Shown in pieces: positions 1-55,094 of a stretch of 55,094 bases of DNA; position 1 is the first letter of the stretch, and each line of letters opens with the position of its first letter. The position numbers were made by a program, and so were the translations under genes. The stretch is from a virus (taxonomy: Duplodnaviria > Caudoviricetes): positions 1 through 55,094 of the IMG/VR virus record IMGVR_UViG_3300035703_000122, one strand, 5' to 3'. The notes below the pieces were generated by a model. It searched no databases. It was given only the letters and a program-made list of their open reading frames with translations, and was not told the DNA's origin.

Positions 1-206
1 AGCATCTTCACGATGCCGGTCTGTCCGGTGTCGGTGGCAACCGCCCACTCGGGAGACCCGCAGTCCGTGAAGTTGGGGACTCCGAACAGATCCATGAGTT
101 CGCCGAGTTGCGCCTCGAAGGTGACGGGCGGCCTGTTGGCCTTGCTACGGGCGGCGTCAATGTCAATCGAGGTCTGGTTGTGTGACTTGATCTGTGTGCT
201 TTGCAT
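1..206 (-). CDS. Hypothetical protein, partial (runs off the left end)
   Basis: Manual translation from ATG at 206 gives MQSTQIKSHNQTSIDIDAARSKANRPPVTFEAQLGELMDLFGVPNF..., open to the window edge and on the same strand as the operon. Confidence 0.6.
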   Translation of the reverse strand, partial: MQSTQIKSHNQTSIDIDAARSKANRPPVTFEAQLGELMDLFGVPNFTDCGSPEWAVATDTGQTGIVKM

Positions 207-223
207 TGCAATGTCTCGCTTGT

Positions 224-252
224 AAAAACAGAAAGGCCGCATCGAGCGGCCT
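224..252 (-). terminator. Intrinsic terminator (GGCCGC hairpin family, copy 1)
   Basis: AGGCCGC-N5-GCGGCCT stem followed on the minus strand by TTTCTGTTTTT. Confidence 0.7.
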
Positions 253-286
253 GTTGTTGGTTCACTGTTCTTCAGAACCAAGTTCT

Positions 287-607
287 TCAGAACAGTGGGA
301 TCACCCATCGAATTTGTTTGCTCAGCTCTTCGAGCGACACCTGTGGGCTGATGCTCTCTCCCTCGGCGTTTGTTCCGAGAACAAGGCCTCGCCCCGCGAG
401 CGGCGAGGGGTAGTCGGCATGGGCAAAGTAGTGCTGACCATCCTTCAACAGACCCTCGTCATCAACGAAGATCGAGTCGTCATTCGCTAGGCGAACGCAG
501 TCGAAGTAGTCGCACCCAAGGTGCTCGCTGATCTGCTTGTAGTCGCCGTTATAGGTGACTTGCTTGATCGCGCATTCGGCGGGGTCGATAAGGTAGGCGG
601 TGTGCAT
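287..607 (-). CDS. DUF3846-like phage protein
   Basis: MHTAYLIDP...QISEHLGCDYFD...IFVDDEGLLK...PLAGRGLVLG matches the DUF3846 pattern. GAGGA RBS before ATG 607. Confidence 0.75.
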   Translation of the reverse strand: MHTAYLIDPAECAIKQVTYNGDYKQISEHLGCDYFDCVRLANDDSIFVDDEGLLKDGQHYFAHADYPSPLAGRGLVLGTNAEGESISPQVSLEELSKQIRWVIPLF

Positions 608-614
608 AGGTTCC

Positions 615-746
615 TCAGAGGATGAAGTAGGCGGACAGTCCGACAACAGACCAAAACACAATCGTTGCCACGATGGATGGGACGCGACTGGGTTCCGTGT
701 TGCTGTCGAGGAATAGGCGCTGAATGGTCTCGGCGTCTTTGCTCAT
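615..746 (-). CDS. Small membrane protein
   Basis: MSKDAETIQRLFLD...IVATIVFWSVVGLSAYFIL has a C-terminal TM helix. ATGA overlap with the upstream gene. Confidence 0.6.
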   Translation of the reverse strand: MSKDAETIQRLFLDSNTEPSRVPSIVATIVFWSVVGLSAYFIL

Positions 747-1072
747 TTCGACTTTCCTTTGCGGCTCGTAGGCAAGTCCGATGCGGACTCGTCCGGTGTT
801 GATTGGGAGGCGTTCGAGGGTGATTCGGTCGGTTCGGTCTGTTCGCATTCGTCTTGGATTTGTTCGTATCGCTTCTTGGGTGTGGGGAGGTCGAGCAGTT
901 GTCGAATCTGTTTCGTGATGCGGGCAATGTCGGCGTCGCCAGACCCGTAGTTGTCCAGCGCATCAAGCACAGTTGCGTAGATGGGCTTGAGGACAGGGGA
1001 GAGGTCGGCCCCTCCCTTGATCTGTCCGATAACCCCCTCAATCGCCTCGCGGGTTTGGGTGATTGATTTCAT
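743..1072 (-). CDS. Hypothetical protein
   Basis: 109 aa ORF, translationally coupled on both sides. Confidence 0.65.
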   Translation of the reverse strand: MKSITQTREAIEGVIGQIKGGADLSPVLKPIYATVLDALDNYGSGDADIARITKQIRQLLDLPTPKKRYEQIQDECEQTEPTESPSNASQSTPDESASDLPTSRKGKSK

Positions 1073-1170
1073 AAAGAGATGTAAACAATGAGCGCAAGGC
1101 CCGATAAGTAGGCAACCAAGCAGGTGGCGAACAGAAGTCGCTCAAGCCATTCGGGAGGGCGGCGGCTCAT
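1069..1170 (-). CDS. 33 aa membrane peptide (below the ORF-track cutoff)
   Basis: MSRRPPEWLERLLFATCLVAYLSGLALIVYISL. Start overlaps the upstream stop (TGATG) and stop overlaps the downstream start (ATGA). Confidence 0.6.
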   Translation of the reverse strand: MSRRPPEWLERLLFATCLVAYLSGLALIVYISL

Positions 1171-1478
1171 CACATGGCCTCGAAAACGTCAGGATTCATC
1201 CTGACGATCCTCTGCGCCTTGGTCACCGGGGGGCGACCCTTCTTCGCGGGACGCGGTTCCCAGATGTGATAGCGGTTGTCCGCAAACGGCCCCAATACAA
1301 CCGCCCCAGGCGACTCAGCCTTGATGGTCTCGATGAGGACAGACTGTCCACTGATCAGGTGTTCGACCGCCTTGATGCGGAAGGACACGGTCTTGCGCAG
1401 TGCTGTGCTGAACTTGCGGCGGTGGCGTGGGTTGGTCTTTTGCACTTGGCTCTCCAGGTTGTGCGCTTGGTTCTTCAT
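1170..1478 (-). CDS. Hypothetical basic protein
   Basis: 102 aa ORF with GGAGA RBS. Confidence 0.65.
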   Translation of the reverse strand: MKNQAHNLESQVQKTNPRHRRKFSTALRKTVSFRIKAVEHLISGQSVLIETIKAESPGAVVLGPFADNRYHIWEPRPAKKGRPPVTKAQRIVRMNPDVFEAM

Positions 1479-1494
1479 TGCGTTGTCTCCGTGG

Positions 1495-1521
1495 AAAAAG
1501 AAAGGGCCGCTGATGCGGCCC
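1495..1521 (-). terminator. Intrinsic terminator (GGCCGC hairpin family, copy 2)
   Basis: GGGCCGC-N4-GCGGCCC followed by TTTCTTTTT on the minus strand. Confidence 0.75.
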
Positions 1522-1544
1522 TGGTGGGTGGTCTGTGGTGATGT

Positions 1545-1844
1545 TTAGAAGGGGACTTCGTCGGCGTGGATCCCATACAGCTCGCTCCTTTCCGACTCCG
1601 TCCTTGCGTACTCTTCGTCTATGGACTCGCCGACGAAGCCTTCCGCGATCAGTCGGTAAGCGCCTTTGCTGTCCCAGGGAATCTGTTCGACTCGGTACCT
1701 GTCGCGACCCGAGTCATCCACATACAGGGTGGTGTGGATAGCGCCGCTCCATGTGGCGGCGGTAGTCTCAAGACCCGTGGTCTTGTGGCCGGTGCGGGTG
1801 GCCTCGCCTCGACCCCCTTTGACGATGCCGTAGAAGTGGCTCAT
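1545..1844 (-). CDS. Conserved phage hypothetical protein
   Basis: MSHFYGIVKGGRGEATRTGHKTTGLETTAATWSGAI. AGGAG RBS and ATGA overlap. Confidence 0.7.
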   Translation of the reverse strand: MSHFYGIVKGGRGEATRTGHKTTGLETTAATWSGAIHTTLYVDDSGRDRYRVEQIPWDSKGAYRLIAEGFVGESIDEEYARTESERSELYGIHADEVPF

Positions 1845-2179
1845 TGCACATACTCCTGCTGATTGGGTGACACCCGGACTGCGGTTGCAGACGACTCCAC
1901 ATCCACATTGCTCAGCGCCTTGCATCGCCCCACGAAGGACGCAATGTCAATGTCGATCTGTTCGCCGTTGATGCTCATCCGAGCATTCGGAACCTCGATG
2001 GAGTGCAGTGACAGAACCTTCTGCATTCCATCTACGATGGCGGTCAGCGTCATCAGGTGGTAGCGAAGGTCTTGCGTCTCTGCCATCGAGTGAGCGAGGC
2101 AGGTCACAAGGTCGTCAACGACCCGCCCAGGATCGTTCTCTTTGTCGGCAGTCTGTTGGTTGCTGTTCGGTTGGTTCAT
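1841..2179 (-). CDS. Hypothetical protein
   Basis: MNQPNSNQQ... preceded by GAGG RBS. Confidence 0.65.
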   Translation of the reverse strand: MNQPNSNQQTADKENDPGRVVDDLVTCLAHSMAETQDLRYHLMTLTAIVDGMQKVLSLHSIEVPNARMSINGEQIDIDIASFVGRCKALSNVDVESSATAVRVSPNQQEYVQ

Positions 2180-2186
2180 GGTCGCC

Positions 2187-2375
2187 TCACCAGTTGTAAA
2201 CATCAGCCACCCCAATACGATTGCCGTTGTCATCCTTGATGACAATGGAGTCGCCGGGGGTGAGCGGCTTGGGATGGCAAGTCACCGACATGAGAAGGTC
2301 GGCGATTGCGTTTCGCGCTTGGTCGTTGCGCTTGTCGGCCTCGTCATCGAGGAAAAGGGTTACTGTTAGTCGCAT
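2187..2375 (-). CDS. Hypothetical protein
   Basis: 62 aa ORF ending IKDDNGNRIGVADV, with AAGGA RBS. Confidence 0.65.
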   Translation of the reverse strand: MRLTVTLFLDDEADKRNDQARNAIADLLMSVTCHPKPLTPGDSIVIKDDNGNRIGVADVYNW

Positions 2376-2387
2376 GGTCTGTTCCTT

Positions 2388-2588
2388 TCAGAGTCCTGCT
2401 TGCCAGTCATTCCATGACTGCTCTCGCTTTTCGTCCCAGTAGTCGGAGCGGGCTTGCTTTGCACCAGCATCCCAGCCTACGAAGTAGGCTCCGGGTTCAG
2501 CGTGGTATCCAGGTAGGTGCGTTGGGGCCTCGCTCATTACGGCTTGATAGCCGTCTGCGTAACCCCTCTCGTAGTCTGTTGACGGCAT
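2388..2588 (-). CDS. Hypothetical protein (YxxGYxxG repeats)
   Basis: MPSTDYERGYADGY...YFVGWDAG, with GGGGA RBS. Confidence 0.6.
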   Translation of the reverse strand: MPSTDYERGYADGYQAVMSEAPTHLPGYHAEPGAYFVGWDAGAKQARSDYWDEKREQSWNDWQAGL

Positions 2589-2607
2589 GGTCTGTTCCCC
2601 TGGTAGC

Positions 2608-2964
2608 TCAGGAAACACAGACCTCGAAGGTCAGGCCGTTGACGGCGTCACGCACCTTGTCGTCAATGTCCATGTCTTCGATGGCGTCGGCCACCTTGTC
2701 GTCGACCGAGGACTCGGTCACGAACTCATCGTGGTCGTACTCGTTGGCGTGGTCTTCCATCGCCTCGGCGACCGCCTCCCCGGCGACACGGGATGCGATA
2801 GCTTCGACCGCACCGACGAAGGTGATAGAGGTTGTGTCCAACCCGGCACCGCCTTCGGCGACTTGGGTTTTGAGGGCGACGATCTGTTCTTGCAGAGGCT
2901 TAACAGCCTCAGCGATGGCGGCGGACACGGCGGCGGACAGGATGGCGTTCAGGTCGATAAGCAC
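2608..2964 (-). CDS. Acidic hypothetical protein
   Basis: 118 aa, GTG start after GAGGA. The C-terminal half is very D/E-rich. Confidence 0.7.
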   Translation of the reverse strand: MLIDLNAILSAAVSAAIAEAVKPLQEQIVALKTQVAEGGAGLDTTSITFVGAVEAIASRVAGEAVAEAMEDHANEYDHDEFVTESSVDDKVADAIEDMDIDDKVRDAVNGLTFEVCVS

Positions 2965-2981
2965 GGTGTTGTTCCTCTCGC

Positions 2982-3008
2982 AAAAAAGAAAAGGCCGCTA
3001 ATGCGGCC
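2982..3008 (-). terminator. Intrinsic terminator (GGCCGC hairpin family, copy 3)
   Basis: GGCCGC-N4-GCGGCC followed by TTTTCTTTTTT on the minus strand. Confidence 0.75.
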
Positions 3009-3039
3009 CGGTGATGGATCTGTTGGCTGGTCTGTTCGG

Positions 3040-3216
3040 TCAGTACCAAAGTTCGGGTGGCTCTCGCCCCCACTCCCTGATGTATTGCTTGCGGTATGCC
3101 TCGCGCTTGGCCTTGGCCTCGCGCTTCTGCCTTGCATCTTCAAAGAAGATGATGACCATGACGAATGCTGTGATTGCCCCGGCAATCATCAGGCGCAGGA
3201 CGAACGGGTTGTCCAT
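3040..3216 (-). CDS. Small single-pass membrane protein
   Basis: MDNPFVLRLMIAGAITAFVMVIIFF plus a basic tail, with AAGGA RBS. Confidence 0.6.
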   Translation of the reverse strand: MDNPFVLRLMIAGAITAFVMVIIFFEDARQKREAKAKREAYRKQYIREWGREPPELWY

Positions 3217-3284
3217 GTCTGTTCCTTTCGTGTAGTGCTGACGGCACTGGTATGCACCCCCTTCGGGGTGCATCACCGCTGACT

Positions 3285-4163
3285 TCAGGCGGCTTGCAGT
3301 TCGGGGGACTCGATCTGTCCGAGGACAGAGTCGATCCACTTCTCTGCGGACGTCTGATCGTTGATCGGGCCTTGGACGTAGGCGCTCTGCGGGAGGGGAA
3401 GCATCTTCAGTGCGGCGGCCATCTGTTGATGGTCGTCCTGGCCCAGGCCCCAGTCTGGCGTCGTGTCGTGCTCGTCGCAAGCCTTGACGATCCCGGCGAA
3501 CAGGGCCGTCCGGAAATATCCCGGCATAGCCGACAGTGCCGCGAGTCGGTCGAGGTCGAGGGGCTGATCCTCATCCTTGATGCTGACGAACTGAGCGAGG
3601 TCGTGCTTGTGGCCTGCGTCGACGTTCTTCCCGGCGAAGCCTCCGACGATCGCCACGCTGTAGCCTGACTCTGTCAGAGCATTCGCCAGTTTCAGGGCGG
3701 CGGCACCACGCCAGAACAGTTTGTCGGCGTCGACGTTGCAGTTCGCACCCAGGTTCACGACGATCGTGACTGAGCGGACACCGGAACCCTGGCGGCGTCG
3801 AGTGCGGCTCCAGGCGCGGCTCAGGTCGCCCCGGTACACGGCGTGTATGTCGAGTTCGGCACCCTGATCGGCGCGTTCCCGGCGTCGACGAATCGAGACG
3901 GGATTTATATCCCGAGTCGCCAGTTTCAACAGACGCTCGGAACCCTGCGGCCACCCTTCCTTCAACCTACGGTTGAGTTCGGTGACGTTCGGCGCACCGT
4001 ACCAGTCCTGACCGCCGCCGCCGTTCTTTTTACCTGTAAGGTAGCCGGTGGCCTCGGCCTTGTTCGCACTGTTCTTCCATTCGACCTTGTCGAGAGTTGC
4101 GGCCTCCATCACAGAGTCGTACAGGACGGCAGTCAGTCGCTTGCCGTTGTGTGCCTTGAGCAT
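3285..4163 (-). CDS. VWA-like partner of the MoxR AAA+ ATPase
   Basis: G-ELDI-AV motif, then a TIVVNLGANCN strand and ALKLANALTESGYSVAIV. It lies directly downstream of a MoxR AAA gene, and the MIDAS motif is degenerate. Confidence 0.7.
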   Translation of the reverse strand: MLKAHNGKRLTAVLYDSVMEAATLDKVEWKNSANKAEATGYLTGKKNGGGGQDWYGAPNVTELNRRLKEGWPQGSERLLKLATRDINPVSIRRRRERADQGAELDIHAVYRGDLSRAWSRTRRRQGSGVRSVTIVVNLGANCNVDADKLFWRGAAALKLANALTESGYSVAIVGGFAGKNVDAGHKHDLAQFVSIKDEDQPLDLDRLAALSAMPGYFRTALFAGIVKACDEHDTTPDWGLGQDDHQQMAAALKMLPLPQSAYVQGPINDQTSAEKWIDSVLGQIESPELQAA

Positions 4164-4196
4164 GGCGATCCTTTCAGCCGGGAGCGATCCGGCGAA

Positions 4197-4246
4197 GCCT
4201 CATCAGTGCGGGAGCGACCCGCAGACCACCTCACGGTGGTTTCGGC
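4197..4246 (-). ncRNA. Hammerhead ribozyme, type II topology
   Basis: The minus strand reads GCC-GAAA-CCACC-GUGA-GGUG-GUC-UGCGGG-UCGCU-CCCGCA-CUGAUGA-GGC. It has the full core (GAAA, GUC, CUGAUGA) and stems I, II and III. Confidence 0.9.
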
Positions 4247-4248
4247 GA

Positions 4249-5439
4249 TCAACCGACGTCGACCTTGGTGCGATCCTCGGCCTTCCAGTCGAGGAAGAAC
4301 TTGTTCTTCACTCGCTCGAAGGTGGCACCGGCCTTGATCAACTTCGTTGCGTCGAGCAGGAATCGGGTGGACATGACCCGTTGCATCCGAAGATCGTTGA
4401 TCTTCTTGCGAACAGCCCAGCCCCAAGCCAACAGACTGGGGTCAACAGACTGACGCTCGAACTTGGTGTCGTAGTCGACAAAGTGTCGACCGGCGCGGAA
4501 CCGATCAAGGAATGCTTCGTCGAGTCGCTCCCGACCGGAATAGGTGCCGTTGGCACCGTTGCCGAAGGTGTTGGCGGCGGCAATGCAGACAAAGTCTGCA
4601 TGACGCTTGACCAACGAACGACCCTTCCGTTGAGGAAGGTAGAAGCTCCCGTTCGCCAGGGCCTGATTGATGAACAGCAGGGTGTTCGGATCGGCGGCGT
4701 CGACTTCGTCGAACAGGAACACTCCGCCGTTCTCGTAGAGACGAACGAAGTCCGATTCGACGTAGTCGAAGGCACCGCCATCCTGCGGCAACAGCCAACC
4801 GGACAGAACAGACTCCGACATTCCTGCTGTGCAGGAAACCGAGGCGAAGGACTTGCCCAGGGCCTCAGCCACTTGGTGAGCCAAGTGGGTCTTGCCAGAC
4901 CCTGCGGGGCCGACCAGGAGGATGTTCAGGCCGCACTGGGCGTCGAGCAGGATGTCCTGAAACTCAGGACGAACATGGCCGCTCGGCTTCCAGTCCGTCC
5001 CATCGGGACGACGAACCTCGATCTTGACGACCGGGGACTTGTCGAGCGCCTTCTTGACTTCGTCAAGGACGATCGACCGAACAGACTCCGGGTCAACCTG
5101 AACACCGAGAGCATTGCGGAGCAATGCAACGACGTCGTCGGACTTGGGAGCCGTCGTCTTGACGACGGGGGCCGCAGGGGCCGGAACAGACTCCACAGGA
5201 GTCTCGGGAGGGATGGCGGCAGGACTCGGAGCCGGAACAGACTCCGTAGGAGTCTCGGCCTTGGCACCGATCGCCGTGATTGCGGCCTGGATGGCGTCGG
5301 CGTTGTACTGCGAAAGCAGTCGGTCGACGCATTCGGTTTTCTTGGTTCGCTCATGGTCAAACCCAACGGCTCCGCCGTTGAGGTGCTTGAACAGATCGAG
5401 GATGGTTGCCTTCGGCAAGGCGAGCAGGGTTTCACGCAT
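4249..5439 (-). CDS. MoxR/CobS/CbbQ-like AAA+ ATPase
   Basis: Walker A GPAGSGKT, Walker B FLFDEVD, sensor AANT and LDEAFLDRF arginine-finger region. AAGGA RBS before MRETLL. Confidence 0.9.
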   Translation of the reverse strand: MRETLLALPKATILDLFKHLNGGAVGFDHERTKKTECVDRLLSQYNADAIQAAITAIGAKAETPTESVPAPSPAAIPPETPVESVPAPAAPVVKTTAPKSDDVVALLRNALGVQVDPESVRSIVLDEVKKALDKSPVVKIEVRRPDGTDWKPSGHVRPEFQDILLDAQCGLNILLVGPAGSGKTHLAHQVAEALGKSFASVSCTAGMSESVLSGWLLPQDGGAFDYVESDFVRLYENGGVFLFDEVDAADPNTLLFINQALANGSFYLPQRKGRSLVKRHADFVCIAAANTFGNGANGTYSGRERLDEAFLDRFRAGRHFVDYDTKFERQSVDPSLLAWGWAVRKKINDLRMQRVMSTRFLLDATKLIKAGATFERVKNKFFLDWKAEDRTKVDVG

Positions 5440-5469
5440 GGTGTGTCCTTTCAGCGTTGGGGTTGCAAG

Positions 5470-6160
5470 CGGGGTACGAAGTACCCGGCACAGACCACGG
5501 CGACGAAGCGGCATGGTCTGTACTTGGCACTCCAAAGGAGTGGGTTCGCGTTCTCCACCGACGAAGTCGGCAACGCGGCGTCACGGTCACTTCGTGACGG
5601 GGAAGGCGGGTTCCACATGGCAGTGGCTCCACAGCACAGAACCCGAAGGGTTCGCCTGAAGTGCTGTCCTCTCGGCAGACAGAGCGAAGCTCTGTGACCT
5701 TCCCGTTAGAGCCGGTGATTGACGTCATCTCGACGTGTACCGACTCCTCTGGAGTCCGACGCTACATCCCGCCGTTGGGGCCGAACCGTTCGGTTCAGTG
5801 CGTCACCGAGTGCCTCTGCTGATCCCCCTTCTACGAAGGGCTTCGCCTATCGGGTCACTCGGTGCTTACAGCACCTACTGGTCGGATTGCGATGACCGGA
5901 GTCACCGTCGACGCTTTCCAATTTACGCCGAGCCTTGTCGAACCGTCAAGGATCCTTGTTTCAACCCGTAGGGTTGGATCGTCGTATGACGCGCTATGTA
6001 GCGATGTGTGTGGCGTTGCGCCGCAACTCGTTGACCCCAGCCCGCCCGTATCCCGTTCTCCAAGGAGAGACTACGTCTCCACAGAGAACCACAGGCCACC
6101 TACGAGGCACCTCCCAGATTCGGCAAACCCTTGTCAGAGAACAGATTTCATCTGTTGGGG
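5470..6160 (-). ncRNA. Candidate large structured RNA or ssDNA element
   Basis: No credible ORF. More than 12 perfect hairpins plus nested long-range stems, with G-U pairs favouring the minus strand. Confidence 0.55.
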
Positions 6161-6196
6161 GAGGGGAGATAGTCGTCAAAGGCCACGTTCGGCGAC

Positions 6197-6217: not shown

Positions 6218-6499
6218 CGGCACCACCACCGTCCACGGCAAACCCAGACCGAATCCCACCGGTCGACGCTCCATCAATCGCCGAACAGACCCCAAGGGGT
6301 CTACCCTGGCTCATTCACGGCACACTCTGCGCTAACCCATTGATTTATCAATGCCCCAATCGGATTTCAGATCCGGTGCGGAGCACCGCAACGCATCATG
6401 CGGGGGTGGGGCGGGGGTGGCGGGCTGCCCACGGGCGCGTGGCGGGGGCGCCTGAGCCTCTACCTATCTCTACCCCACACACGCACTTCCCTCCCAATC

Positions 6500-6655
6500 C
6501 ATAGGGGGCCAATAGGGGGGCCATTGGGGAGGGTATTGAGGGGGCTATAGGGGAGGCCAATGGGGGGGCGAATAGCAATAAAGAATATAGAAGTAGAGAG
6601 TATGTAATACGGCGCTGGATAGGGGGGCATTAGGGGGGGTATAGCCCCCCTATCG
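6500..6655. repeat. G-rich 12-bp iteron array with AT-rich spacer (candidate origin or initiator-binding site)
   Basis: ATAGGGGGGCCA / TTGGGGAGGGTA / TTGAGGGGGCTA / TAGGGGAGGCCA / ATGGGGGGGCGA, then A-rich 6575-6610. Confidence 0.75.
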
Positions 6656-6731
6656 CGTGTGGACAACCAGGTCTGGGGTGGGGGGGCCAACAAGGGACTC
6701 CTGCCTGCTACACAAAATACGACAAAGTACC

Positions 6732-6760
6732 TTGTGAAGTGCGGATCACAGGCGTACAGT
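6732..6760 (+). promoter_or_regulatory. Putative sigma70 promoter for the late operon
   Basis: TTGTGA-17 bp-TACAGT, 36 bp upstream of terS. Confidence 0.45.
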
Positions 6761-6796
6761 GTGCAGCAGGGTGGGAAAGTCCACTCGTTCAACACC

Positions 6797-7111
6797 ATGC
6801 TGACGACCAAAGAAAAGACTTCGATCTCTGCTCGCCGGGAGAAGTTGCGCCAGGAGGCCGCTGATGCGACCCGTGAGCGCATCAAGACTTCCAAGCTGCT
6901 TGATCGTCTTCAGGCGTTCGCGCTCGGCGAGAAGATTGACGGCAAGGCGGTGAAGCTCTCGCCTTCGGAGATCAAGGCGATGGAGATCTTGTTCGACAAG
7001 ACCTTGCCCAACCTTGCGTCGATCAAGCACGAGGTGGAGGCCAAGCAGGTGACCTTCCTGATCGACACGCAACCCGATGCAGCAGACGATTCGGTACAGA
7101 CCGCCGGGTAA
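6797..7111 (+). CDS. terS: Terminase small subunit
   Basis: RERIKTSKLLDRLQAFALG...EILFDKTLPNL pattern. Overlaps the terL start. Confidence 0.75.
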   Translation: MLTTKEKTSISARREKLRQEAADATRERIKTSKLLDRLQAFALGEKIDGKAVKLSPSEIKAMEILFDKTLPNLASIKHEVEAKQVTFLIDTQPDAADDSVQTAG

Positions 7112-21745: not shown

Positions 21746-21760
21746 TTCAACGGAGAGCTT

Positions 21761-46176: not shown

Positions 46177-46201
46177 TGGTGGTGGTTGCCTTTCCGGGGC
46201 G

Positions 46202-47578: not shown

Positions 47579-47704
47579 ATTCTTTTCTATTGGTTCTTAG
47601 TTCTTAGTTCTTAGTTGCTATTCGCCCCCCTATTAGGGCCGCATTAGGGAGGCCATTAGGGGGGCGAATAGGGAGGGCATTAGGGTGGCATTAGCCCCCC
47701 TATT
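47579..47704. repeat. AT-rich TTCTTAG repeats plus G-rich 11-12 bp iterons (candidate origin)
   Basis: GTTCTTA x3, then TTAGGGCCGCA / TTAGGGAGGCCA / TTAGGGGGGCGA / ATAGGGAGGGCA / TTAGGGTGGCA. Confidence 0.75.
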
Positions 47705-47714
47705 AACAAGCGGA

Positions 47715-48392
47715 TTAGGCCGCTAGTGCGCCGTAATGACGATGCTCGACCAGGACACCGGCCACCTCGACCGCGCCACCTATCTTCATCACGTCAGGCC
47801 AATCCGGCGTCAAGGTGACAACCTGGGATTCGCCAGACTCGGTTCTTTGGTATCGACCCAACAGAACAGATGATCTGTCGACGATGACCAAAACAGTCTG
47901 TCCCGGCCGTGGCGGTATCGAGGTGTCAAACAGGAGGTCGTCGCCCGGGGTCACGCACCTGCTACAGCCGTTGGCCAGCGCTCGGATAGCGAAGGTCTTT
48001 CCGTGCGCGCCCAGGCTGGTCAGCAGCGAGTCCACCGGCTGCGCCTTGACGCCATTCAGGTGCGACACCACGTCGTCGTCACCGAGGAACACCTGGACGG
48101 AGACGAGGTTTCGGTCTTCAATCTCTTGCTTGGTAGGTATGGGATTGCCTTCTCCGCTCGCAAGCCAATTCGAATCAACGCCCAGTGCCTCGGCAATCTT
48201 GATGGTGTACCGGGATGTGGTTGCCTCATGCCCGTTCACGCCGCAGATGTACGCGATGGTCTGCTGCTTGGTGCCGACCTTGGCCGCCAGTTGCGCCTGA
48301 GTCATTCCGGTCGCGCTCAGTAGTGCGCGGACTCGCCCGCCCAGCGTAGGCTGGTTGAGTAAGGCTTTTTCGATGTCTGAGAGAGAGAGCAT
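47715..48392 (-). CDS. CI-like repressor (XRE HTH plus degenerate S24 domain)
   Basis: MTQAQLAAKVGTKQQTI...IAEALGV..NWL..GEG, with C-terminal FAIR...PGD..LFD...GVL. Confidence 0.85.
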   Translation of the reverse strand: MLSLSDIEKALLNQPTLGGRVRALLSATGMTQAQLAAKVGTKQQTIAYICGVNGHEATTSRYTIKIAEALGVDSNWLASGEGNPIPTKQEIEDRNLVSVQVFLGDDDVVSHLNGVKAQPVDSLLTSLGAHGKTFAIRALANGCSRCVTPGDDLLFDTSIPPRPGQTVLVIVDRSSVLLGRYQRTESGESQVVTLTPDWPDVMKIGGAVEVAGVLVEHRHYGALAA

Positions 48393-48797: not shown

Positions 48798-49478
48798 ATG
48801 ATCTACTACCCGTTTCATGTGCGCGACTATGTGGCGGCAACGCGCCACCTGTCGATGCACGAAGACTTGGCGTACCGGCGTCTGCTGGACGCTTACTACA
48901 CCGCCGAACAGCCGCTGCCGCGTGATGCTGCCCAGTGCGCTCGCATGATTGCGATGCGCGAGTATGTCGAAGAGGTCGGCGCGGTTCTCAACGAGTTCTT
49001 CGTCCTGGCCGAAGATGGTTGGCACAACCAACGCGCCGATGAGGAGCTGGGCAAGTACCGCCTCATGGCCGAGGCCGGGAGGCGCGGTGCCCAGAAGCGA
49101 TGGGGTTCCCGTGGGGAGGGTATTGCCCCCGCCACTGCCCCCGCCACCGCCCCTGCTATTGGGGAGGTCAGTGGGGAGGGCATTGCCCCCGCCAAGACGA
49201 AGAGCGCCAAGGTCAAGCCAGTCCCCGCCCACGCCCCCGAGGGGGTTGATCCCGATGTGTGGTCGGAGTTCGTGGCCGCGCGCAAGAAGCGCGGCTCTTT
49301 GATTACCAAGCGCGTGATGGACGGCATCAAGTCCGAGGCAGAGATTGCCGGGTGGACTCTGAACGACGCGCTCAAGGAGGTTGTGCTTCGCGGTTGGCAG
49401 TCCTTTAAGGCCGAGTGGGTCAGCAAGGGTGGCAAGTCCAAGTCTGTCGAGCCTTGGGAAGTGGAGGGTGCGATTTGA
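48798..49478 (+). CDS. Replication initiator, DUF1376/YdaU family
   Basis: YYPFHVRDY...T.HLS..E..AYRRLLD.YY and C-terminal VWSEF...RKK...GWQSF, with internal 12-bp repeats. Confidence 0.88.
   Translation: MIYYPFHVRDYVAATRHLSMHEDLAYRRLLDAYYTAEQPLPRDAAQCARMIAMREYVEEVGAVLNEFFVLAEDGWHNQRADEELGKYRLMAEAGRRGAQKRWGSRGEGIAPATAPATAPAIGEVSGEGIAPAKTKSAKVKPVPAHAPEGVDPDVWSEFVAARKKRGSLITKRVMDGIKSEAEIAGWTLNDALKEVVLRGWQSFKAEWVSKGGKSKSVEPWEVEGAI
49111..49194 (+). repeat. Intragenic 12-bp iterons
   Basis: GTGGGGAGGGTA / TTGCCCCCGCCA / CTGCCCCCGCCA / CCGCCCCTGCTA / TTGGGGAGGTCA / GTGGGGAGGGCA / TTGCCCCCGCCA. Confidence 0.75.
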
Positions 49479-49900
49479 ACCCGAACACCGACAACCTTCT
49501 GGGCCGACTCGACAAGGTCAAGGGCCGCAACGGATCGTGGGTAGCCTGCTGCCCTGCGCACAAAGACCGCTCGCCCTCGCTCACGATCCGCGAAACATCG
49601 GACGGAAAACTCCTGCTGCACTGCTTCGCCGGTTGCGAGGTTGCTGATGTCGTCGCCGCGATCGGCATGGATCTGACCGATCTGTTCCCCCCTGAAACCA
49701 AGACCCGTGACTACGGTGTGCCGCAGAAGCGGCAGCGGTTCCTTGCGTCCGAGTTGCTTCAGGCCATCTCCCTTGAGGCCACCATCGTTGCCATCTGCGC
49801 ATACGACCTGAGCCAGGGCAAGGCCCTGCGCGACGCAGACCATGAGCGCCTGCGACTGGCGGCTTCTCGAATCAATGAGGCACTGGAGGCAAGCAAGTGA
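49475..49900 (+). CDS. Primase-type zinc-finger protein (no TOPRIM domain)
   Basis: CCPAH.D..PSL...LLHCFAGC. TTG start overlaps the upstream stop. Confidence 0.8.
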   Translation: MNPNTDNLLGRLDKVKGRNGSWVACCPAHKDRSPSLTIRETSDGKLLLHCFAGCEVADVVAAIGMDLTDLFPPETKTRDYGVPQKRQRFLASELLQAISLEATIVAICAYDLSQGKALRDADHERLRLAASRINEALEASK

Positions 49901-50853
49901 GCAGCATCGTTTCGATTGAGTCTGTCGCCCGTCGCCTCGACGAGGCCAGGAGCACCCGCCTGAAGGACACCAAGATCGACTTCGACGGGTACATGAAGGC
50001 GCGACATGAGGACGTCGCCAACATTCGCGGAACTGTCGACTTCCGAGAGGAAGTCATGGACGAGTTCTTCGGTGACCAAAAGTCCAACGGCAAAGACCTG
50101 CCCTGGACAAAGTCGTTTGACAAGTTCCACATTCGACGCGGCGAGGTGTCTGTTTGGACTGGCTTCAACGGACACATGAAGTCGATGGTCACTGGCTATG
50201 TGATGCTCGGCCTGACCAAGCAAGATGAGAAGGTCTGCATTGCGTCGTTTGAGATGCCGCCGCGCAAGACCCTCAAGCGCATGGCTTGTCAGGCCATCGG
50301 TCTGCGCAACCCGACCGAGAAGTTTGTCCACAAGTTCCTCGACGACATGGAGGGCAATCTGTTCCTGTACGACCAGCAGGGAGAGACGACCCCAGAGCGA
50401 ATCCTCGCGGTTATCTACTACTGCGCCGAGCAACTCGGTGTCACGCAGTTCGTGATCGACAGCCTAATGAAGGTGGTCGCGGGCGAGGATGACTACAACG
50501 GACAGAAGCGGTTCATGGGGCAACTGTGCGCCGCCGCCAAGGATCTCAACATCCACATCCACCTTGTGCATCACTCGCGCAAGCGTGACGACGAGGCCAA
50601 GCGCCCAGGCAAGCAAGACGCCAAGGGTTCCGGGGCCATCGTGGATCAGGCCGACAACTTCCTCACGGTCTACAAGTTCCCTCGCAAGGACGGCAAGGAG
50701 ACGGACGACAAGGGCGAGCCTTTACCCACCCACGGCCTCTATGTGGACAAGCAACGCCACGGCGAATGGGAGGGCGCATTCCTGCTCTGGTTTGACGACA
50801 ACAGTCTCCAGTTCAAGGAGCACCCAAAGGAGAAGGTGAGGTACTGGGTATGA
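49897..50853 (+). CDS. DnaB / T7 gp4-like SF4 helicase
   Basis: GFNGHMKS (Walker A variant), SFEM, FVIDSL, HLVHH.RK, KGSGAI...ADN and KQRHG. Confidence 0.9.
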   Translation: MSSIVSIESVARRLDEARSTRLKDTKIDFDGYMKARHEDVANIRGTVDFREEVMDEFFGDQKSNGKDLPWTKSFDKFHIRRGEVSVWTGFNGHMKSMVTGYVMLGLTKQDEKVCIASFEMPPRKTLKRMACQAIGLRNPTEKFVHKFLDDMEGNLFLYDQQGETTPERILAVIYYCAEQLGVTQFVIDSLMKVVAGEDDYNGQKRFMGQLCAAAKDLNIHIHLVHHSRKRDDEAKRPGKQDAKGSGAIVDQADNFLTVYKFPRKDGKETDDKGEPLPTHGLYVDKQRHGEWEGAFLLWFDDNSLQFKEHPKEKVRYWV

Positions 50854-51113
50854 CGCCGGAAGAGCAGCGCAAGCGCAATAGAGAACAGATGCCCAACGTG
50901 GCAGCCATGCTCGATGAGTTCAGGGCCGCCAATCCGGGTCTCCAGTTCAAGGTGGTATGGGCCAAGGATCACGGCACCGGCCTTGAGGTCGGCAAGCGCG
51001 ACGACCCCAAGCCCGAGCAGGTGTTCGTGATACCAGAGTCCTACGGACAGACAAAGAAACCCGAGGCATCTCCCTCGTGGAAACAGATTGGCAAGAAGGG
51101 GAAGCGCAAATGA
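50850..51113 (+). CDS. Hypothetical protein
   Basis: NREQMPNVAAMLDEFR, with ATGA coupling. Confidence 0.7.
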   Translation: MTPEEQRKRNREQMPNVAAMLDEFRAANPGLQFKVVWAKDHGTGLEVGKRDDPKPEQVFVIPESYGQTKKPEASPSWKQIGKKGKRK

Positions 51114-51654: not shown

Positions 51655-51658
51655 GCGG

Positions 51659-52135
51659 GTGTCTGTTGTGTCGCTGGACGCTGGAGAGATGGCGGTGGCG
51701 CAGGCGGTGGCCGCAATGCGCCACGGAATCAACCGCGCAAGCAGCGTGAGCAACAGCCGCGTCGGGCCGCAGTCCGACTATCAAACAGATCTGGATGGTC
51801 TGGTGGCCGAGATCGCCTGGGCCAAGTGGCGCAACTGTTATCCCGACCTGTCTGTCTCGCCTCGATCCGGTGGTGCGGACGCCCTGGTCAGCGGCAAGCG
51901 CGTGGACATCAAGGCCACTCGCTACGCCAACGGCAGGCTACTTGCCGTGCCAAGCAAGCACAAGGATGACGCTGATGTGTATGTCCTTGCGATCGTCAAC
52001 GAGAGCACGGTGAGGTTCCCTGGCTGGGCCTACTCGGACGAGCTGCTGTCCGAACAGAACCTGACAGACCTCGGGCATGGCCCGACCTACGCCATGACCC
52101 AAGACCAACTTCGCCCATTCAAGGAGGCGGCATGA
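51659..52135 (+). CDS. Putative PD-(D/E)XK-fold nuclease
   Basis: G..AE, GGAD and VDIK motifs. Confidence 0.6.
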   Translation: MSVVSLDAGEMAVAQAVAAMRHGINRASSVSNSRVGPQSDYQTDLDGLVAEIAWAKWRNCYPDLSVSPRSGGADALVSGKRVDIKATRYANGRLLAVPSKHKDDADVYVLAIVNESTVRFPGWAYSDELLSEQNLTDLGHGPTYAMTQDQLRPFKEAA

Positions 52136-52464
52136 AACCAATCCCGCCACACACGACATTCAAGCAGGCTCTTCAGCGCGGGTTCGTTGGCCGCATGGAA
52201 GACCGCAAGTACATGGATTGGGTCAAGTCGCTGCGTTGCGTGGGGTGCAACAGAGAGGCAGATGACCCGCATCACCCCTACGGCGTTGGCTTCAAGGGGA
52301 TGGGGACAAAGGTGCCCGATTACTGGGTGATACCGCTGTGCCGCAACTGCCACGACAACCTTCACCACGACCCGGATAAGTGGGAGGAGGTGAATGGACA
52401 ACAGACGGAGCACGCGCTGATGACGCTGACCCAGGCGATCTACGAGGGAAGGATCAAGCTGTGA
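52132..52464 (+). CDS. DUF968 / HNH-like protein
   Basis: YMDWVKSL.C..C....DDPHH...GMGTK...IPLCR.CH...H. Confidence 0.85.
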   Translation: MKPIPPHTTFKQALQRGFVGRMEDRKYMDWVKSLRCVGCNREADDPHHPYGVGFKGMGTKVPDYWVIPLCRNCHDNLHHDPDKWEEVNGQQTEHALMTLTQAIYEGRIKL

Positions 52465-52994
52465 CGACCCTGACCCTGTCGTTTGCGCGCGAGAAGTGCA
52501 AGACCATCGGCTGCCCCAGGACTGCCGGTGTGTTTGGGGTGTGCGAAGAGCATGAGGCCAGAGAGATTCACCGCTACTGGGCGCAAGCAGCCAGTGATGG
52601 AATCTGTGACTGGAAGAAGCCAGCCTGCTTCCGAACAGACCGCGAGTGGAGGGAGTATGTGGTGGCGTTCATGCTGTGCCGGAACAGCAAGGAGCGGCAA
52701 CGCAACAGAGTCGACTACTGCCGAGACTGCACGCCGGAGTTCAAGGCGGAACAGACCAAGCTGGGCAAGTGCGCTCACCCGGAGACGGTCTTTATCCGCC
52801 CCCAGGTTTCAACAGAGGATGTGGTTGGGGTCTCATTCGACGAGAAGAAGAAGTCGAATGTGGCATGGGAGAACGCCATGCTGGGCGCTTCGGGCGAGAT
52901 CGTGGGTCTGCCCGATGAGGAGGCGATGTCCGACAGCTTGAAGCGACTGACATCACCGAAGAAGAAAGGGAGGCCTCGCAGTGAGGATGCTTGA
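52461..52994 (+). CDS. Cys-rich hypothetical protein
   Basis: CxxxxC...CxxH, then PACF and YCRDC...C.HPE. Confidence 0.7.
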   Translation: MTTLTLSFAREKCKTIGCPRTAGVFGVCEEHEAREIHRYWAQAASDGICDWKKPACFRTDREWREYVVAFMLCRNSKERQRNRVDYCRDCTPEFKAEQTKLGKCAHPETVFIRPQVSTEDVVGVSFDEKKKSNVAWENAMLGASGEIVGLPDEEAMSDSLKRLTSPKKKGRPRSEDA

Positions 52995-53409
52995 GTTCCC
53001 GTACCCGATCAGCGCCAACCGCTACTGGCGCACCTTCAGGGGGATGACTGTTCGCAGCAAGGAGGCGCAGGGCTACAAGGAGTCTGCCGCCATCATCTGT
53101 GACATCCACAGAGTAAAAATTCTTACTTGCCCGGTAACGGTCTCGATGACCCTGCATCCGCCGATCCCGAAGGATTGGAAGAAGCGGGAGAAGAAGGAGC
53201 CGAGGTATTGGCCGCTGTCTGTTCGGCGGCTAGACCTGGACAACTGTCAGAAGGTCATCCTCGATGCGCTGCAAGGCTGCGCGTATGAGAACGACAAACA
53301 GATCACGGCAATCTCCATCACGCTCGGGATCCCGATGGAGCGGGGCTGCATCATGGTGGGGGTTGAGCCTGACCCGTACTGGTCAACGCCCGAGCAGAGG
53401 GCTGCGTAA
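52981..53409 (+). CDS. rusA: RusA-like Holliday junction resolvase
   Basis: PISANRYW and DLDN..K...DAL......ND.QI. Confidence 0.9.
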   Translation: MRMLEFPYPISANRYWRTFRGMTVRSKEAQGYKESAAIICDIHRVKILTCPVTVSMTLHPPIPKDWKKREKKEPRYWPLSVRRLDLDNCQKVILDALQGCAYENDKQITAISITLGIPMERGCIMVGVEPDPYWSTPEQRAA

Positions 53410-53897
53410 TGGAGTTCCGTAGTTGCGAGCAGGCGGTCAAGTTTGCGTATCGCATCAGCGATCGCGTCGAGTACGCGAGGTCAGATCCAGGCGCGGTCAG
53501 GGGCCTGTCTGTTTCGGGCCTGAGTCCGCTGGACTTGCACGCACAGGCGGCGATGATTCAGTCTCGGATCGAGAGGCTTGGCCCGACAGATCGTTGTTCA
53601 TTGATTGCGATGCACGGATTGGGGAGGGCGCGGACGGATGCAATTCGGCAGTTGTCTGCCTACATCTACCCCTCTGTGAGAGAGGCAATCCCAGGACAGA
53701 GCGAGGTTGCTCTGATCGTTTGTCATTGGGCGACAAAGCGTCCATCCATCAGAAGGATGGCAGAGGATCGTGGCGTCAGTTACAGGAAGGTGTGCGCCTG
53801 GAGGTCTGCCGTACTGCGGGCATGGGTGCCTCACTATGTGAGGGCCATCGACAGACTCCAGGCTTCGTTAGAAGAGGGCGGTGTTGTGTTTACCTAG
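53409..53897 (+). CDS. Putative late regulator / Q-like antiterminator
   Basis: F.S...AV.FA N-terminus and C-terminal HTH (SIRRMAEDRGVSYRKV). Last gene of the replication operon. Confidence 0.6.
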   Translation: MEFRSCEQAVKFAYRISDRVEYARSDPGAVRGLSVSGLSPLDLHAQAAMIQSRIERLGPTDRCSLIAMHGLGRARTDAIRQLSAYIYPSVREAIPGQSEVALIVCHWATKRPSIRRMAEDRGVSYRKVCAWRSAVLRAWVPHYVRAIDRLQASLEEGGVVFT

Positions 53898-54138
53898 ACC
53901 TTGGCTCGAACAGCCTAGCCTCCCTGCCGCACTCACCCTCGTACCTCATGGTGATGCAGGTGCCGTGGTTGACTGCGGTTGCCTTTGGCGAAAGGCGACA
54001 GGCCATGACTGTTGAGGTTTCTCGGGATGCAACACCCCCCTGAAACTCATGGTAGTGCTTACAAGCCATGCAGGTCTCTCTCTCTTTGTCCCACAGATAC
54101 TCCGGTAGTTTCCACCGCTGTTCTGGTTGCCAGGTCAT
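53890..54138 (-). CDS. Cys-rich hypothetical protein
   Basis: CMACKHY...C...C...R...CG..ARLFEP, with ATGA coupling. Confidence 0.65.
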   Translation of the reverse strand: MTWQPEQRWKLPEYLWDKERETCMACKHYHEFQGGVASRETSTVMACRLSPKATAVNHGTCITMRYEGECGREARLFEPRSR

Positions 54139-54506
54139 TCTCCACATCGGAACAGATTTACTTTCTCTTTGTTGGTTTTGTTGACCGAGCCAAGGTGGAA
54201 GATGGAAGCCACTCGCTTCTTCATCTTGTCCTTGCCTCGCTTGTTGTAGACAGACTTGGGTAGCGGCTTTGGCCGCTTCGCATCGGGCTGGTTGCCGACA
54301 GCCCAAAGAGCGCGGGGGTACAGGCGACCCCCGTCCTCATCCCTGCGGTACGAATGCACATACAAGACCGCAGGTTTCTTGCACCGAAGAGCGCCGATGT
54401 AGCCGCGCAACAGATCAATGTCGATGCCGAGCTGGTCGGCCATCTCGCGCTGAGTCATCGGCCCTTCGGATGTCAGAAGGTCAACGATCTGTCGACGAAC
54501 GCTCAT
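54135..54506 (-). CDS. Winged-helix DNA-binding protein
   Basis: IVDLLTSEGPMTQREMADQLGI. Confidence 0.75.
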   Translation of the reverse strand: MSVRRQIVDLLTSEGPMTQREMADQLGIDIDLLRGYIGALRCKKPAVLYVHSYRRDEDGGRLYPRALWAVGNQPDAKRPKPLPKSVYNKRGKDKMKKRVASIFHLGSVNKTNKEKVNLFRCGE

Positions 54507-54724
54507 CCAACAGACCCCCCGGATGGGCAGTCGCGCCCCTGTCTGCAATCGTTGTGGCAGGGAGGGCATTGCTTGTGCAAACCCTCCTGCATCTCCCGGC
54601 ACACCTCTCGCACCACGCGCCGCGCATCCAGCCTGGACGCAAACCATCGGCTAAGGCTGCGACTGTCGTCCTGCAACAAACCGGGCGGGAACCCTGTCCG
54701 CCCCCCGTTGACCTCAGACCTCAT
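54503..54724 (-). CDS. Hypothetical protein
   Basis: PGLLQDD..LSRWF and CPPCHNDCRQGRDCP motifs. Confidence 0.7.
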   Translation of the reverse strand: MRSEVNGGRTGFPPGLLQDDSRSLSRWFASRLDARRVVREVCREMQEGLHKQCPPCHNDCRQGRDCPSGGSVG

Positions 54725-54727
54725 GCG

Positions 54728-54955
54728 CTATTGCTCCCGTTGATAGATGGTGTTGCGGGTCTCGAACCCGCCATCGAACTTGCGGAGTACCTGACTGGTG
54801 CGGATGTCGCACTCGCCCAGGTATGGGTGGTTCAGGCCATAGACCCTGGCGTACTCCCAGGTCTCGCCCTGGTGGTCGTGGTCAACCGAGTAAAACTCAG
54901 GCTCGCCCCGGTAAAGAACCAACGGCTTCTGCTTTGCGGAATCTGTCTGTTGCAT
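54728..54955 (-). CDS. Hypothetical protein
   Basis: NHPYLG...IRTS.V...FETRNTIY pattern, with AGGA RBS. Confidence 0.7.
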   Translation of the reverse strand: MQQTDSAKQKPLVLYRGEPEFYSVDHDHQGETWEYARVYGLNHPYLGECDIRTSQVLRKFDGGFETRNTIYQREQ

Positions 54956-55094
54956 TGCGCTTCCTTCTGAACTTGATGTTGTTGAGTGAGTTGCGGGGCA
55001 CGACCCAAAGCTCACGCCCATCGCCGCAATCCATGAGGAACGCACCATTGATGCGACCCTCCTTCAGGAGTTGATTGACCCGTTGTCGAGTGAC
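54897..55094 (-). CDS. HTH DNA-binding protein, partial (start outside the window)
   Basis: Manual translation gives VTRQRVNQLLKEGRINGAF...WVVP, open from the window edge. Confidence 0.65.
   Translation of the reverse strand, partial: VTRQRVNQLLKEGRINGAFLMDCGDGRELWVVPRNSLNNIKFRRKRNATDRFRKAEAVGSLPGRA

Follow-up and report, generated by a model that had tools for sequence, protein, structure and literature searches.

A short asymmetric DNA word, RTCTGTY, is over-represented across the genomes of one tailed-phage clade and may mark dispersed sites for a clade-encoded DNA-binding protein

In this work, we analyzed the virus record IMGVR_UViG_3300035703_000122 (Caudoviricetes), a whole virus genome of 55,094 bp with 59.4% GC that represents a temperate, tailed phage (hereafter the window, meaning this entire stretch of DNA). 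We found that the hexamer TCTGTT and its reverse complement AACAGA, which are best described by the consensus RTCTGTY (R, purine; Y, pyrimidine; hereafter the word), are over-represented throughout this genome, and that this property is restricted to one clade of phages. The excess is real. The window contains 75 copies of TCTGTT and 67 of AACAGA (142 in total), whereas Markov models of order 0, 1, 2, and 3 predict 16.5, 23.8, 30.0, and 50.4, respectively, and this pair ranks first among all hexamers in the order-3 ranking. Our literature search found no published description of the TCTGTT/AACAGA word in phages. The patterns described below suggest that the word may provide dispersed sites for a protein encoded by the phages themselves.

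A first-pass annotation, made from the sequence alone, had listed 17 copies in the first 3.5 kb and estimated that base composition predicts roughly one. All 17 positions carry the word (13 as TCTGTT and those at 85, 227, 645, and 1130 as AACAGA), and we found an 18th copy at 447, such that positions 1-3500 contain 18 copies against 1.05 computed from composition, in agreement with that estimate. Across the window, there are 161 copies of RTCTGTY (88 on the plus strand and 73 on the minus strand), 212 of TCTGTY, and 258 of TCTGT. In a logo built at the 258 TCTGT cores, R is found at position -1 in 73% of the cases and Y at position +5 in 82%; the consensus RTCTGTY proposed in the annotation is a fair match to this logo. 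The base that follows TCTGTT is S (G or C) in 92% of the copies, and the word as a whole has five to seven informative positions.

The excess is independent of coding. The genes contain 127 copies, compared with 25.1 ± 4.4 (maximum of 37 in 300 shuffles) after synonymous shuffling within genes, 15.2 ± 4.0 after permutation of the codon order, and 22.5 ± 4.4 after codon shuffling pooled over the genome. The enrichment thus survives the codon-preserving shuffles (15-25 expected versus 127 observed) that had been proposed as a check. Among the positions where the encoded proteins permit the word, 126 of 426 are occupied against 22 expected, and every reading frame is used except for the one that requires Cys. 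The frequent use of TCT-GTT for Ser-Val, which had been noted earlier, is also evident (37 sites), with 38 of the 103 Ser-Val dipeptides encoded in this way against 4.1 predicted by codon usage. TCT, GTT, and AGA are non-preferred codons in the window. In non-coding DNA, we found 17 copies in 5,119 bp, which is an approximately 7-fold excess over dinucleotide shuffles (2.41 ± 1.52; maximum of 8 in 300). The word is mostly installed through synonymous codon choice where the proteins permit it, and in the spacers.

For the comparison among genomes, capsid relatives were drawn from viral and genome collections and split into word-rich and word-poor sets. The word-rich set consists of the window and eight relatives (G001, G002, G003, and G411-G415), all complete or near-complete records. 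In these eight relatives, RTCTGTY occurs at 2.0-2.9 copies/kb across a GC range of 48-61%. The word-poor relatives G004 and G005 have 0.40 and 0.21 copies/kb, respectively, with window-like GC contents and with structural genes in common at 60-70% identity. The longer form RTCTGTTS was found 61, 95, and 55 times in G001, G002, and G003, against 7, 9, and 13 for the reversed control, and the corresponding numbers of copies are 12 in G004 and 2 in G005. For G411-G415, RTCTGTY was found 112-148 times against 16-45 for the control. Synonymous shuffling resulted in z scores of 15-28 in all eight word-rich genomes tested and of 1.6 and -1.4 in two word-poor controls. Within the clade, the sub-clade formed by G003 and G413-G415 favors ATCTGTY, with C and T about equally common at the last position.

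The same division was observed in three sets of loci, collected by similarity to a CobS-like ATPase, an HTH_17 protein, and a zinc-finger-like protein of the window, that overlap in contigs and have non-independent counts. All 31 CobS-like loci with at least 58% identity are word-rich (1.6-4.6 copies/kb), compared with none of the 49 loci at 54% identity or below. Among the HTH_17 loci, 49 of 50 that also carry clade genes are word-rich, the exception being a 6-kb piece with 0.81 copies/kb, compared with 0 of 12 that lack clade genes. For the zinc-finger-like protein, the loci with clade genes are word-rich without exception (52/52), and four distant loci are not word-rich. A reverse search with a 14-bp palindrome formed by two copies of the word returned 65 viral contigs. 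Seven of the loci seeded in this way span at least 8 kb and have at least 2.0 further sites/kb, and all seven belong to the clade (six by protein match and one by contig identity). One 9-kb palindrome-seeded locus without clade genes has 1.98 sites/kb, together with a high control count (18 versus 13).

Integrase genes are present in G000, G001, G002, G411, and G412. In G003, G413, G414, and G415, neither a tyrosine or serine recombinase nor a CI homolog was detected, and RTCTGTY occurs at 2.65-2.93 copies/kb. The clade thus includes both temperate and apparently non-temperate phages. The word follows clade membership and varies with neither GC content nor lysogeny. Among the word-poor relatives, the outgroup G895 (0.30 copies/kb) shares TerL, capsid, exonuclease, helicase, and HNH genes with the clade. 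This genome (L355-L357) has over-represented words of its own, namely, CCAGTAGG (16 copies versus 1.1 expected) and GACAAAC (37 versus 7.2), and its GTTTGT copies are frequently 10-22 bp apart in the region of approximately 14.7-41 kb.

The word shows no preference for either strand. The ratio of TCTGTT to AACAGA in the window is 75:67 (p = 0.56), the copies are split 72 versus 69 between the coding and template strands (p = 0.87), and runs tests on site orientation are non-significant in all four genomes examined (z = -1.2 in the window and -0.6, -1.1, and +1.5 in three relatives). The order of orientations is random in these four genomes, with no replichore-type skew that switches at an origin or terminus, and no end bias was found in 2.5-kb bins of the window. 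Together with the shuffles and the non-coding excess, these orientation counts bear out the earlier suggestion that the word is under selection at the DNA level, irrespective of frame and strand, across genes and spacers. No more than six sites are found in any 150 bp of the window, and the densest spots occupy non-corresponding positions across six genomes. In the window, the highest density was found in the region of the paired genes for DUF7192 and CobS-like proteins (3285-5439). At the other extreme, 4.45 kb without TCTGTT or AACAGA (17415-21868) spans the gene for a 1195-aa tape-measure-like protein and the gene next to it. The Poisson probability of one such gap is approximately 1e-5, and this stretch is possibly recently acquired DNA.

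Neighboring sites are closer to each other than expected. When pooled over nine genomes, 155, 265, and 322 adjacent sites are within 10, 20, and 30 bp of each other, against 69.5, 136, and 201 expected. The spacing of direct pairs peaks at 9-10 bp and that of inverted pairs at 6, 10, and 15-16 bp. We also compared the neighbors at 6-24 bp with shuffles inside 1-kb bins and found 28 pairs versus 15.7 ± 3.7 in the window and 52 versus 20.8 ± 4.0 in G003, with a clear excess in G412, G413, G414, and G415 and a weaker one in G001; these tests are not independent because G003 and G414 are close relatives. Both inverted pairs reported in the first-pass annotation are present. The pair AACAGA-tttca-TCTGTT (AACAGAtttcaTCTGTT; 6140-6156) is located in a divergent intergenic region upstream of terS, and the perfect 14-bp palindrome GAACAGATCTGTTC (39771-39784) forms the end of a four-copy cluster (39733-39784) in a polyvalent-protein gene. 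Boxes of the LexA type (CTGT-N8-ACAG) were considered and rejected, as there are zero convergent pairs at the needed spacing of 12.

The sites are under weak purifying selection, with long-term turnover. Between G003 and G414, 189 of 218 sites (87%) are kept, compared with 66-70% for background k-mers. The corresponding values are 111 of 158 versus 42-48% for G413/G415 and 100 of 185 versus 30-36% for G003/G413. With flanks matched for codon phase as the control, changed bases are less frequent in the core than in the flanks in all three pairs (3.5% versus 9.0% in G003/G414, 10.5% versus 15.8% in G413/G415, and 18.3% versus 23.6% in G003/G413), and this reduction in change extends only from position -2 to position +4. 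Our initial reading that site positions are not conserved, which was derived from deep relatives, was revised on the basis of this constraint in close pairs. The use of the word also differs among genes. The major capsid gene of the window has no TCTGTY at all, and its orthologs in seven word-rich genomes have 7 sites against 24.7 expected. The orthologs of the gene at 13370-13681 have 0 sites against 7.0 expected. Early genes, such as those for DUF7192 and an 87-aa protein, are somewhat enriched. This pattern is compatible with a cost of the word in highly expressed genes.

The same excess in the host chromosome had been named as an observation that would speak against selected sites in the phage. 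We examined stand-ins for the host chosen by their match to the likely attP core of the window (43377-43424, plus strand), which is located directly downstream of the integrase gene and corresponds to the 3′ part of tRNA-Cys(GCA), from the anticodon loop to CCA. This segment has matches in 101 of 401 Pseudomonadota genomes (E ≤ 0.001) and in 0 of 201 Actinomycetota genomes at 1e-8. At E ≤ 1e-12, there are matches in 7 of the 301 Burkholderiales genomes examined, and six of the seven belong to one family with small genomes (seven genomes in the collection), with identities of 92-94% and differences in the variable loop alone. Five genomes of that family have 0.06-0.11 RTCTGTTS/kb, with an ordinary ratio of 2.0-3.5 to the reversed control. 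The densities are 0.08-0.12/kb in metagenome bins that contain clade or sister contigs and in a Pseudomonas genome with a distant capsid relative. The highest density among the 401 Pseudomonadota is approximately 0.44/kb (G052), compared with 1.92/kb (106 copies) in the window. One of these 401 genomes (G393) is flagged as unpublished, and none of our conclusions depends on it. A search of the seven genomes in the family of G617 found no clade prophage. The excess is thus absent in these stand-ins (0.06-0.12/kb versus 1.9/kb), and the objection from the host is weakened rather than closed, given that they are stand-ins only.

We tentatively favor the explanation that the word provides dispersed sites for a putative DNA-binding protein encoded by the clade. 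In the proposed mechanism, R-TCTGT-Y would be a recognition word held by one tailed-phage clade at approximately 2-4.6 copies/kb on both strands, with approximately 150-240 copies of TCTGTY per genome, and its reader, most likely encoded by the clade, would bind duplex DNA as a monomer at a site of 6-7 bp. With neighboring copies often about one helical turn apart, such a reader could decorate the entire phage chromosome, and it may serve to mark, cover, or organize phage DNA as distinct from host DNA in the lytic cycle. The word is found in four records without an integrase or CI, and therefore it would have a role in the lytic cycle or for the DNA itself rather than in the silencing of a prophage. 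The suggestion of selected binding or marking sites in the first-pass annotation remains the best reading, given the DNA-level selection and the purifying selection in close relatives; the stoperator and the Chi or translocase options that accompanied it are disfavored, as discussed below. We consider it possible, with somewhat more reservation, that the word is a virus-owned "self" word, present in approximately 200 copies, for a self-encoded reader of the zinc-finger-like, HTH_17, or AAA+ type. Phage DNA with 2-4.6 sites/kb would then be set apart from host DNA with approximately 0.1/kb, and this distinction could be used in protection, in packaging choice, or in replication and recombination. 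Sister lineages may use other words, such as CCAGTAGG and GACAAAC in G895.

Several observations weigh against a clade-encoded reader. Deep relatives, at approximately 70-79% DNA identity, keep the sites no better than background (6/16 versus 0.32 in L001), and therefore the selection on each site must be weak. The ratio of core to flank change is 1.1-1.4 in the deepest pairs, which are the only ones with a ratio above 1. A drive through biased conversion would result in a similar pattern of site conservation. In G002 (17 versus 15.9) and G411 (18 versus 12.5), close pairs show a marginal excess or none. The association between genes and the word singles out no reader because about a dozen clade-core genes all follow the same phylogeny. 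The structural model of our first candidate, the zinc-finger-like protein encoded at 52461-52994, has a pLDDT (predicted local distance difference test) of 71 and matched no known fold in Foldseek, and a partial homolog of this protein (42% over 72 aa) is found in the word-poor G895. Moreover, the best tRNA-Cys match to the attP segment is 94% rather than 100%, and therefore there is room for a host-encoded reader.

The association of genes with the word was evaluated in five and then ten whole records and in the three locus sets, and it delimits the clade-core set only. The genes that are common to all nine word-rich genomes and missing from G004 and G005 encode DUF3846, DUF7192, the CobS-like ATPase, a 458-aa protein, the central half of the polyvalent protein, HTH_17, an exonuclease, a Sak-like annealing protein, a helicase, the 87-aa protein, a DUF968 HNH protein, and the protein at 52461-52994. 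Among these, G895 keeps the exonuclease (53% identity), the helicase (45%), and the HNH protein (58%), and it has no DUF3846, DUF7192, Sak-like, HTH_17, or RusA gene. Three putative readers are considered as leads, in order of preference. The first is the Cys/His zinc-finger-like protein (52461-52994, plus strand), which is conserved in all nine word-rich genomes compared. It has two invariant motifs, C-x4-C-x9-C-x2-H and C-x2-C-x13-C-x-H, and a basic KKKGRP tail that we take to be AT-hook-like. Searches of Pfam, PHROG, PDB, Foldseek, and ESM Atlas returned no match to this protein. The second is the HTH_17 excisionase-type protein (44549-44809, minus strand), which is kept in the four records without any integrase and has, alone among the clade-core proteins, a named DNA-binding domain. 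The third is the clade-specific pair of DUF7192 (3285-4163) and the CobS-like AAA_5 ATPase (4249-5439), encoded next to each other on the minus strand in the leftward block.

The helix-turn-helix genes proposed in the first-pass annotation are not conserved with the word: that at 47715 has a homolog in three of the eight other word-rich records, and those at 54135, 42254, and 54897 (gene 54728-54955) have none. An open reading frame (49475-49900) with similarity to a zinc-binding domain was found in the window and in only three of the eight other word-rich genomes. When DUF7192, the 87-aa protein, DUF3846, and the zinc-finger-like protein were used as profile queries, the PDB returned chance-level matches only, as did Foldseek and ESM Atlas for the last of these. 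None of the clade-core genes was found to encode a primase catalytic domain. In six-frame searches of five genomes, the methyltransferase families PF01555, PF02086, PF00145, and PF02384 were each found in none, and methylation of the word by a phage enzyme is unlikely.

Among the alternatives that still invoke a sequence-reading protein, it is rather unlikely that a phage enzyme targets the word, as opposed to a protein that binds it passively. Under this explanation, the DUF968 HNH protein or another nuclease would nick the word in a strand-specific manner and start recombination-dependent replication, or an enzyme would introduce a non-methyl modification. In its shortness and asymmetry, the word resembles the nick sites of T5 or tf and those recognized by nicking HNH enzymes. 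Furthermore, the HNH, RecE-like exonuclease, and Sak-like genes are all part of the clade core, and nicks at the frequent inverted pairs with spacings of 6, 10, and 15-16 bp would result in double-strand breaks. A report on phage Orf-family recombination proteins, some of which are fused to an HNH domain, also mentions DUF968 (PMC4118853). However, G895 has the HNH protein (58%) and the exonuclease (53%) and yet is word-poor. In addition, no methyltransferase was found in the five genomes, and the Pfam and PHROG scans revealed no other modification enzyme. Cleavage sites are usually lost by conversion in homing systems, not gained, and a cleavage target would probably not accumulate as the word has.

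An unlikely explanation, though one that deserves comparable attention, is that a host protein reads the word and the clade has accumulated the word of its host, which would be a Chi-like signal for RecBCD or AddAB, an uptake-type signal, a nucleoid-protein site, or an extended site around CTG preferred by the host primase. The length of 5-7 nt is in the size range of known Chi sequences, and the positions turn over at constant density, like those of Chi and of the DNA uptake sequence (DUS) and uptake signal sequence (USS). There are Chi-rich lambdoid phages in which Chi is the commonest octamer, according to a recent study (PMC12315714). However, the word is neither polar nor clustered toward one end of the genome, and its density is approximately five times that in the phages LLS or P1. 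The phage has its own Rec module, whereas the Chi-rich phages described there lack one. The stand-ins have 0.06-0.11 copies/kb, and the maximum among the 401 Pseudomonadota is approximately 0.44/kb versus 1.9/kb in the window. Similarly, G004, G005, and G895 are word-poor despite the same GC content and structural genes in common, and no word-bearing phage outside the clade was found among the 65 seeded contigs. The Chi-like or translocase signal considered in the first-pass annotation is therefore disfavored by the balanced orientation (75:67; runs z of -1.2), by the Rec module, and by the lack of enrichment in the host stand-ins.

Explanations without a reader are less probable still. It is quite doubtful that the word is driven up by biased mutation, repair, or gene conversion, of the very-short-patch-repair kind, and held back in highly expressed genes by selection against rare codons. 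Such a drive would be consistent with the depletion of capsid genes and with the unconserved positions at depth, and it would likewise reduce divergence at existing sites. Nonetheless, no single-mismatch neighbor of the word is strongly depleted (observed/expected of 0.62-2.0), the excess of close pairs is not predicted, and the drive itself would require a clade-specific enzyme that reads sequence. Moreover, the effects of very-short-patch repair are far smaller, and we know of no process that results in 30% occupancy of the permitted positions or in a 5- to 8-fold hexamer excess. Finally, a by-product of composition, codon usage, or amino acid content is highly improbable. The favored codons CTG, TTC, and CAG make the pattern 2-14 times as frequent as its reversed control in many Pseudomonadota genomes. 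Yet all shuffles of the window leave 15-25 copies versus 127, the non-coding DNA is equally enriched, TCT, GTT, and AGA are non-preferred, and the word is missing in relatives of equal GC content. The shuffles, in the window and in the other word-rich genomes, and the non-coding counts already refute this explanation.

Several known systems resemble this word in part. The FtsK orienting polar sequences (KOPS) and SpoIIIE recognition sequences (SRS) are over-represented short words that are read in duplex DNA and strongly skewed along replichores; the TCTGTY word is likewise short and over-represented but has no skew according to the runs tests. DUS of Neisseriaceae and USS of Pasteurellaceae are host-chromosome words of 9-12 bp that occur at approximately one per kb and are read by the competence machinery. 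The word shares with them the presence in both orientations and in coding and non-coding DNA, some inverted pairs, and a density that is kept despite turnover. However, only 5-7 of its positions are informative, it is the property of a phage clade, and the host stand-ins show no enrichment.

Two other systems are known from phages. In the lambdoid phages LLS, P1, and Pseudomonas MD8, Chi is shared with the host, occurs approximately once per 1.9 kb with clustering near one end, and is biased to one strand (20/23 in LLS and 32/32 in MD8), and these Chi-rich phages are reported to have no Rec module (PMC12315714). Like Chi as described there, the word is a short top k-mer of a temperate phage genome that exceeds both chance and codon usage. 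Unlike Chi, it occurs once per 0.26-0.39 kb, equally on both strands and without end bias, in phages that have a Rec module and with host stand-ins that are not enriched. The stoperators of Cluster A mycobacteriophages are just over twenty 13-mers in promoters and short intergenic gaps, with an orientation that follows transcription, and a monomeric immunity repressor reads them (PMC9283540). These are also asymmetric sites that are distributed in numbers across a phage genome, and stoperator-like repression was among the functions suggested in the first-pass annotation. This suggestion does not hold for the word, in which the sites are of 6-7 bp instead of 13, 127 of 142 copies are inside genes, and the two orientations are balanced (72 versus 69). 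In the clade, there are 142-240 such sites per genome, which are mostly intragenic, unoriented, and kept without an integrase or CI.

In a broader context, Chi, DUS/USS, and KOPS are known mainly from bacterial chromosomes, and phages sometimes copy such words. Stoperators are the known case of a word that belongs to phages, but their sites are limited in number, long, oriented, and found between genes. The density of the clade word is approximately five times that of Chi in the phages known to be richest in Chi; the word has no polarity and is selected inside genes at a visible codon cost. If a clade-encoded reader exists, this would be a virus that labels its own DNA by sequence alone, with no chemical modification, and such a self word would parallel Chi or DUS in a virus, independently of the host. 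The clade is present in many viral contigs from metagenomes: the three locus searches, which overlap in part, identified 31, 49, and 52 word-rich loci.

We also noted strong words in other phages. In raw counts without codon shuffling, the top hexamers in 10 kb of unrelated viral contigs include ACAGCT in L166 (44 versus 6.6 expected), TGCTAA in L210/L207 (40 versus 8.3), CACGAG in L173 (49 versus 12.7), ACTGAT in L097 (28 versus 6.6), and TATATA in L068 (20 versus 0.6). As phages such as L166, L210, L173, and L097 have strong words of their own, the phenomenon may be wider. A strong word as a general trait of phages with CobS-like genes was considered and rejected, given that the median top-hexamer z score in 10 kb is 5.2 among 45 such loci versus 5.1 among 50 control loci, compared with 9.5 among 25 clade loci. 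Palindromic hexamers are over-represented in some relatives relative to order-2 expectations, namely, CTCGAG in G004 (L125-L128; 152 versus 55) and G005 (L129-L131; 154 versus 51) and GAGCTC in G002 (L118-L121; 110 versus 31), and codon effects (CTC-GAG and GAG-CTC) may contribute to these values.

The gene model of the window, based on codon log-odds and ribosome-binding sites with a PHROG/Pfam cross-check for a subset of genes only, has 62-63 genes and is approximately 91% coding. A megablast search with 13 kb of the window against a phage collection returned no match. The nearest cultured capsid relatives are Rhizobium phages (51%), and no cultured phage has a CobS-like protein above 54% identity. 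The small terminase TerS is encoded at 6659-7111. Structural genes include those for the large terminase (7077-8516), the portal (8528-10531), and the major capsid protein (12203-13114, plus strand). The gene at 33167-41410 (plus strand) encodes a polyvalent protein of 2747 aa with ART-PolyVal (residues 1274-1444) and LPD38 (residues 2435-2627) domains, and segment-wise Pfam scans of this protein revealed nothing beyond these two. Its conservation in the clade is limited to the central half, and the giant proteins of G004 and G005 are differently composed.

The minus strand carries the genes for a tyrosine integrase (43481-44527) and a CI-like repressor (47715-48392), as well as the Rec module (45868-47457), which consists of SSB (45868-46176), the RecE-like exonuclease (46202-46822), and the Sak-like annealing protein (46822-47457). 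Clade-core early genes on the plus strand encode the DnaB-like helicase (49897-50853), the basic 87-aa protein (50850-51113), and the DUF968 HNH protein (52132-52464). The clade-specific core gene for the DUF3846 protein is located at 287-607 on the minus strand. An O-like initiator and RusA are also encoded, according to Pfam/PHROG scans.

The window also has several tandem repeats. In the 1002-aa tail-region gene (26392-29400), an 84-bp unit (28 codons) is repeated approximately 3-4 times at 70-73% match (27255-27623). Another array has a 12-bp unit close to ATTAGGGGGGC in approximately six copies just upstream of terS (6499-6575), with inverted copies extending to approximately 6655. A second array of this 12-bp unit (47632-47694; approximately 5.5 copies) is located between the Sak-like and CI-like repressor genes and adjoins a 7-bp repeat, GTTCTTA, with 3.4 copies (47593-47616). 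These 12-bp arrays look like localized protein-binding iterons of the type found at origins, operators, or a pac/cos site, and they differ from the dispersed word.

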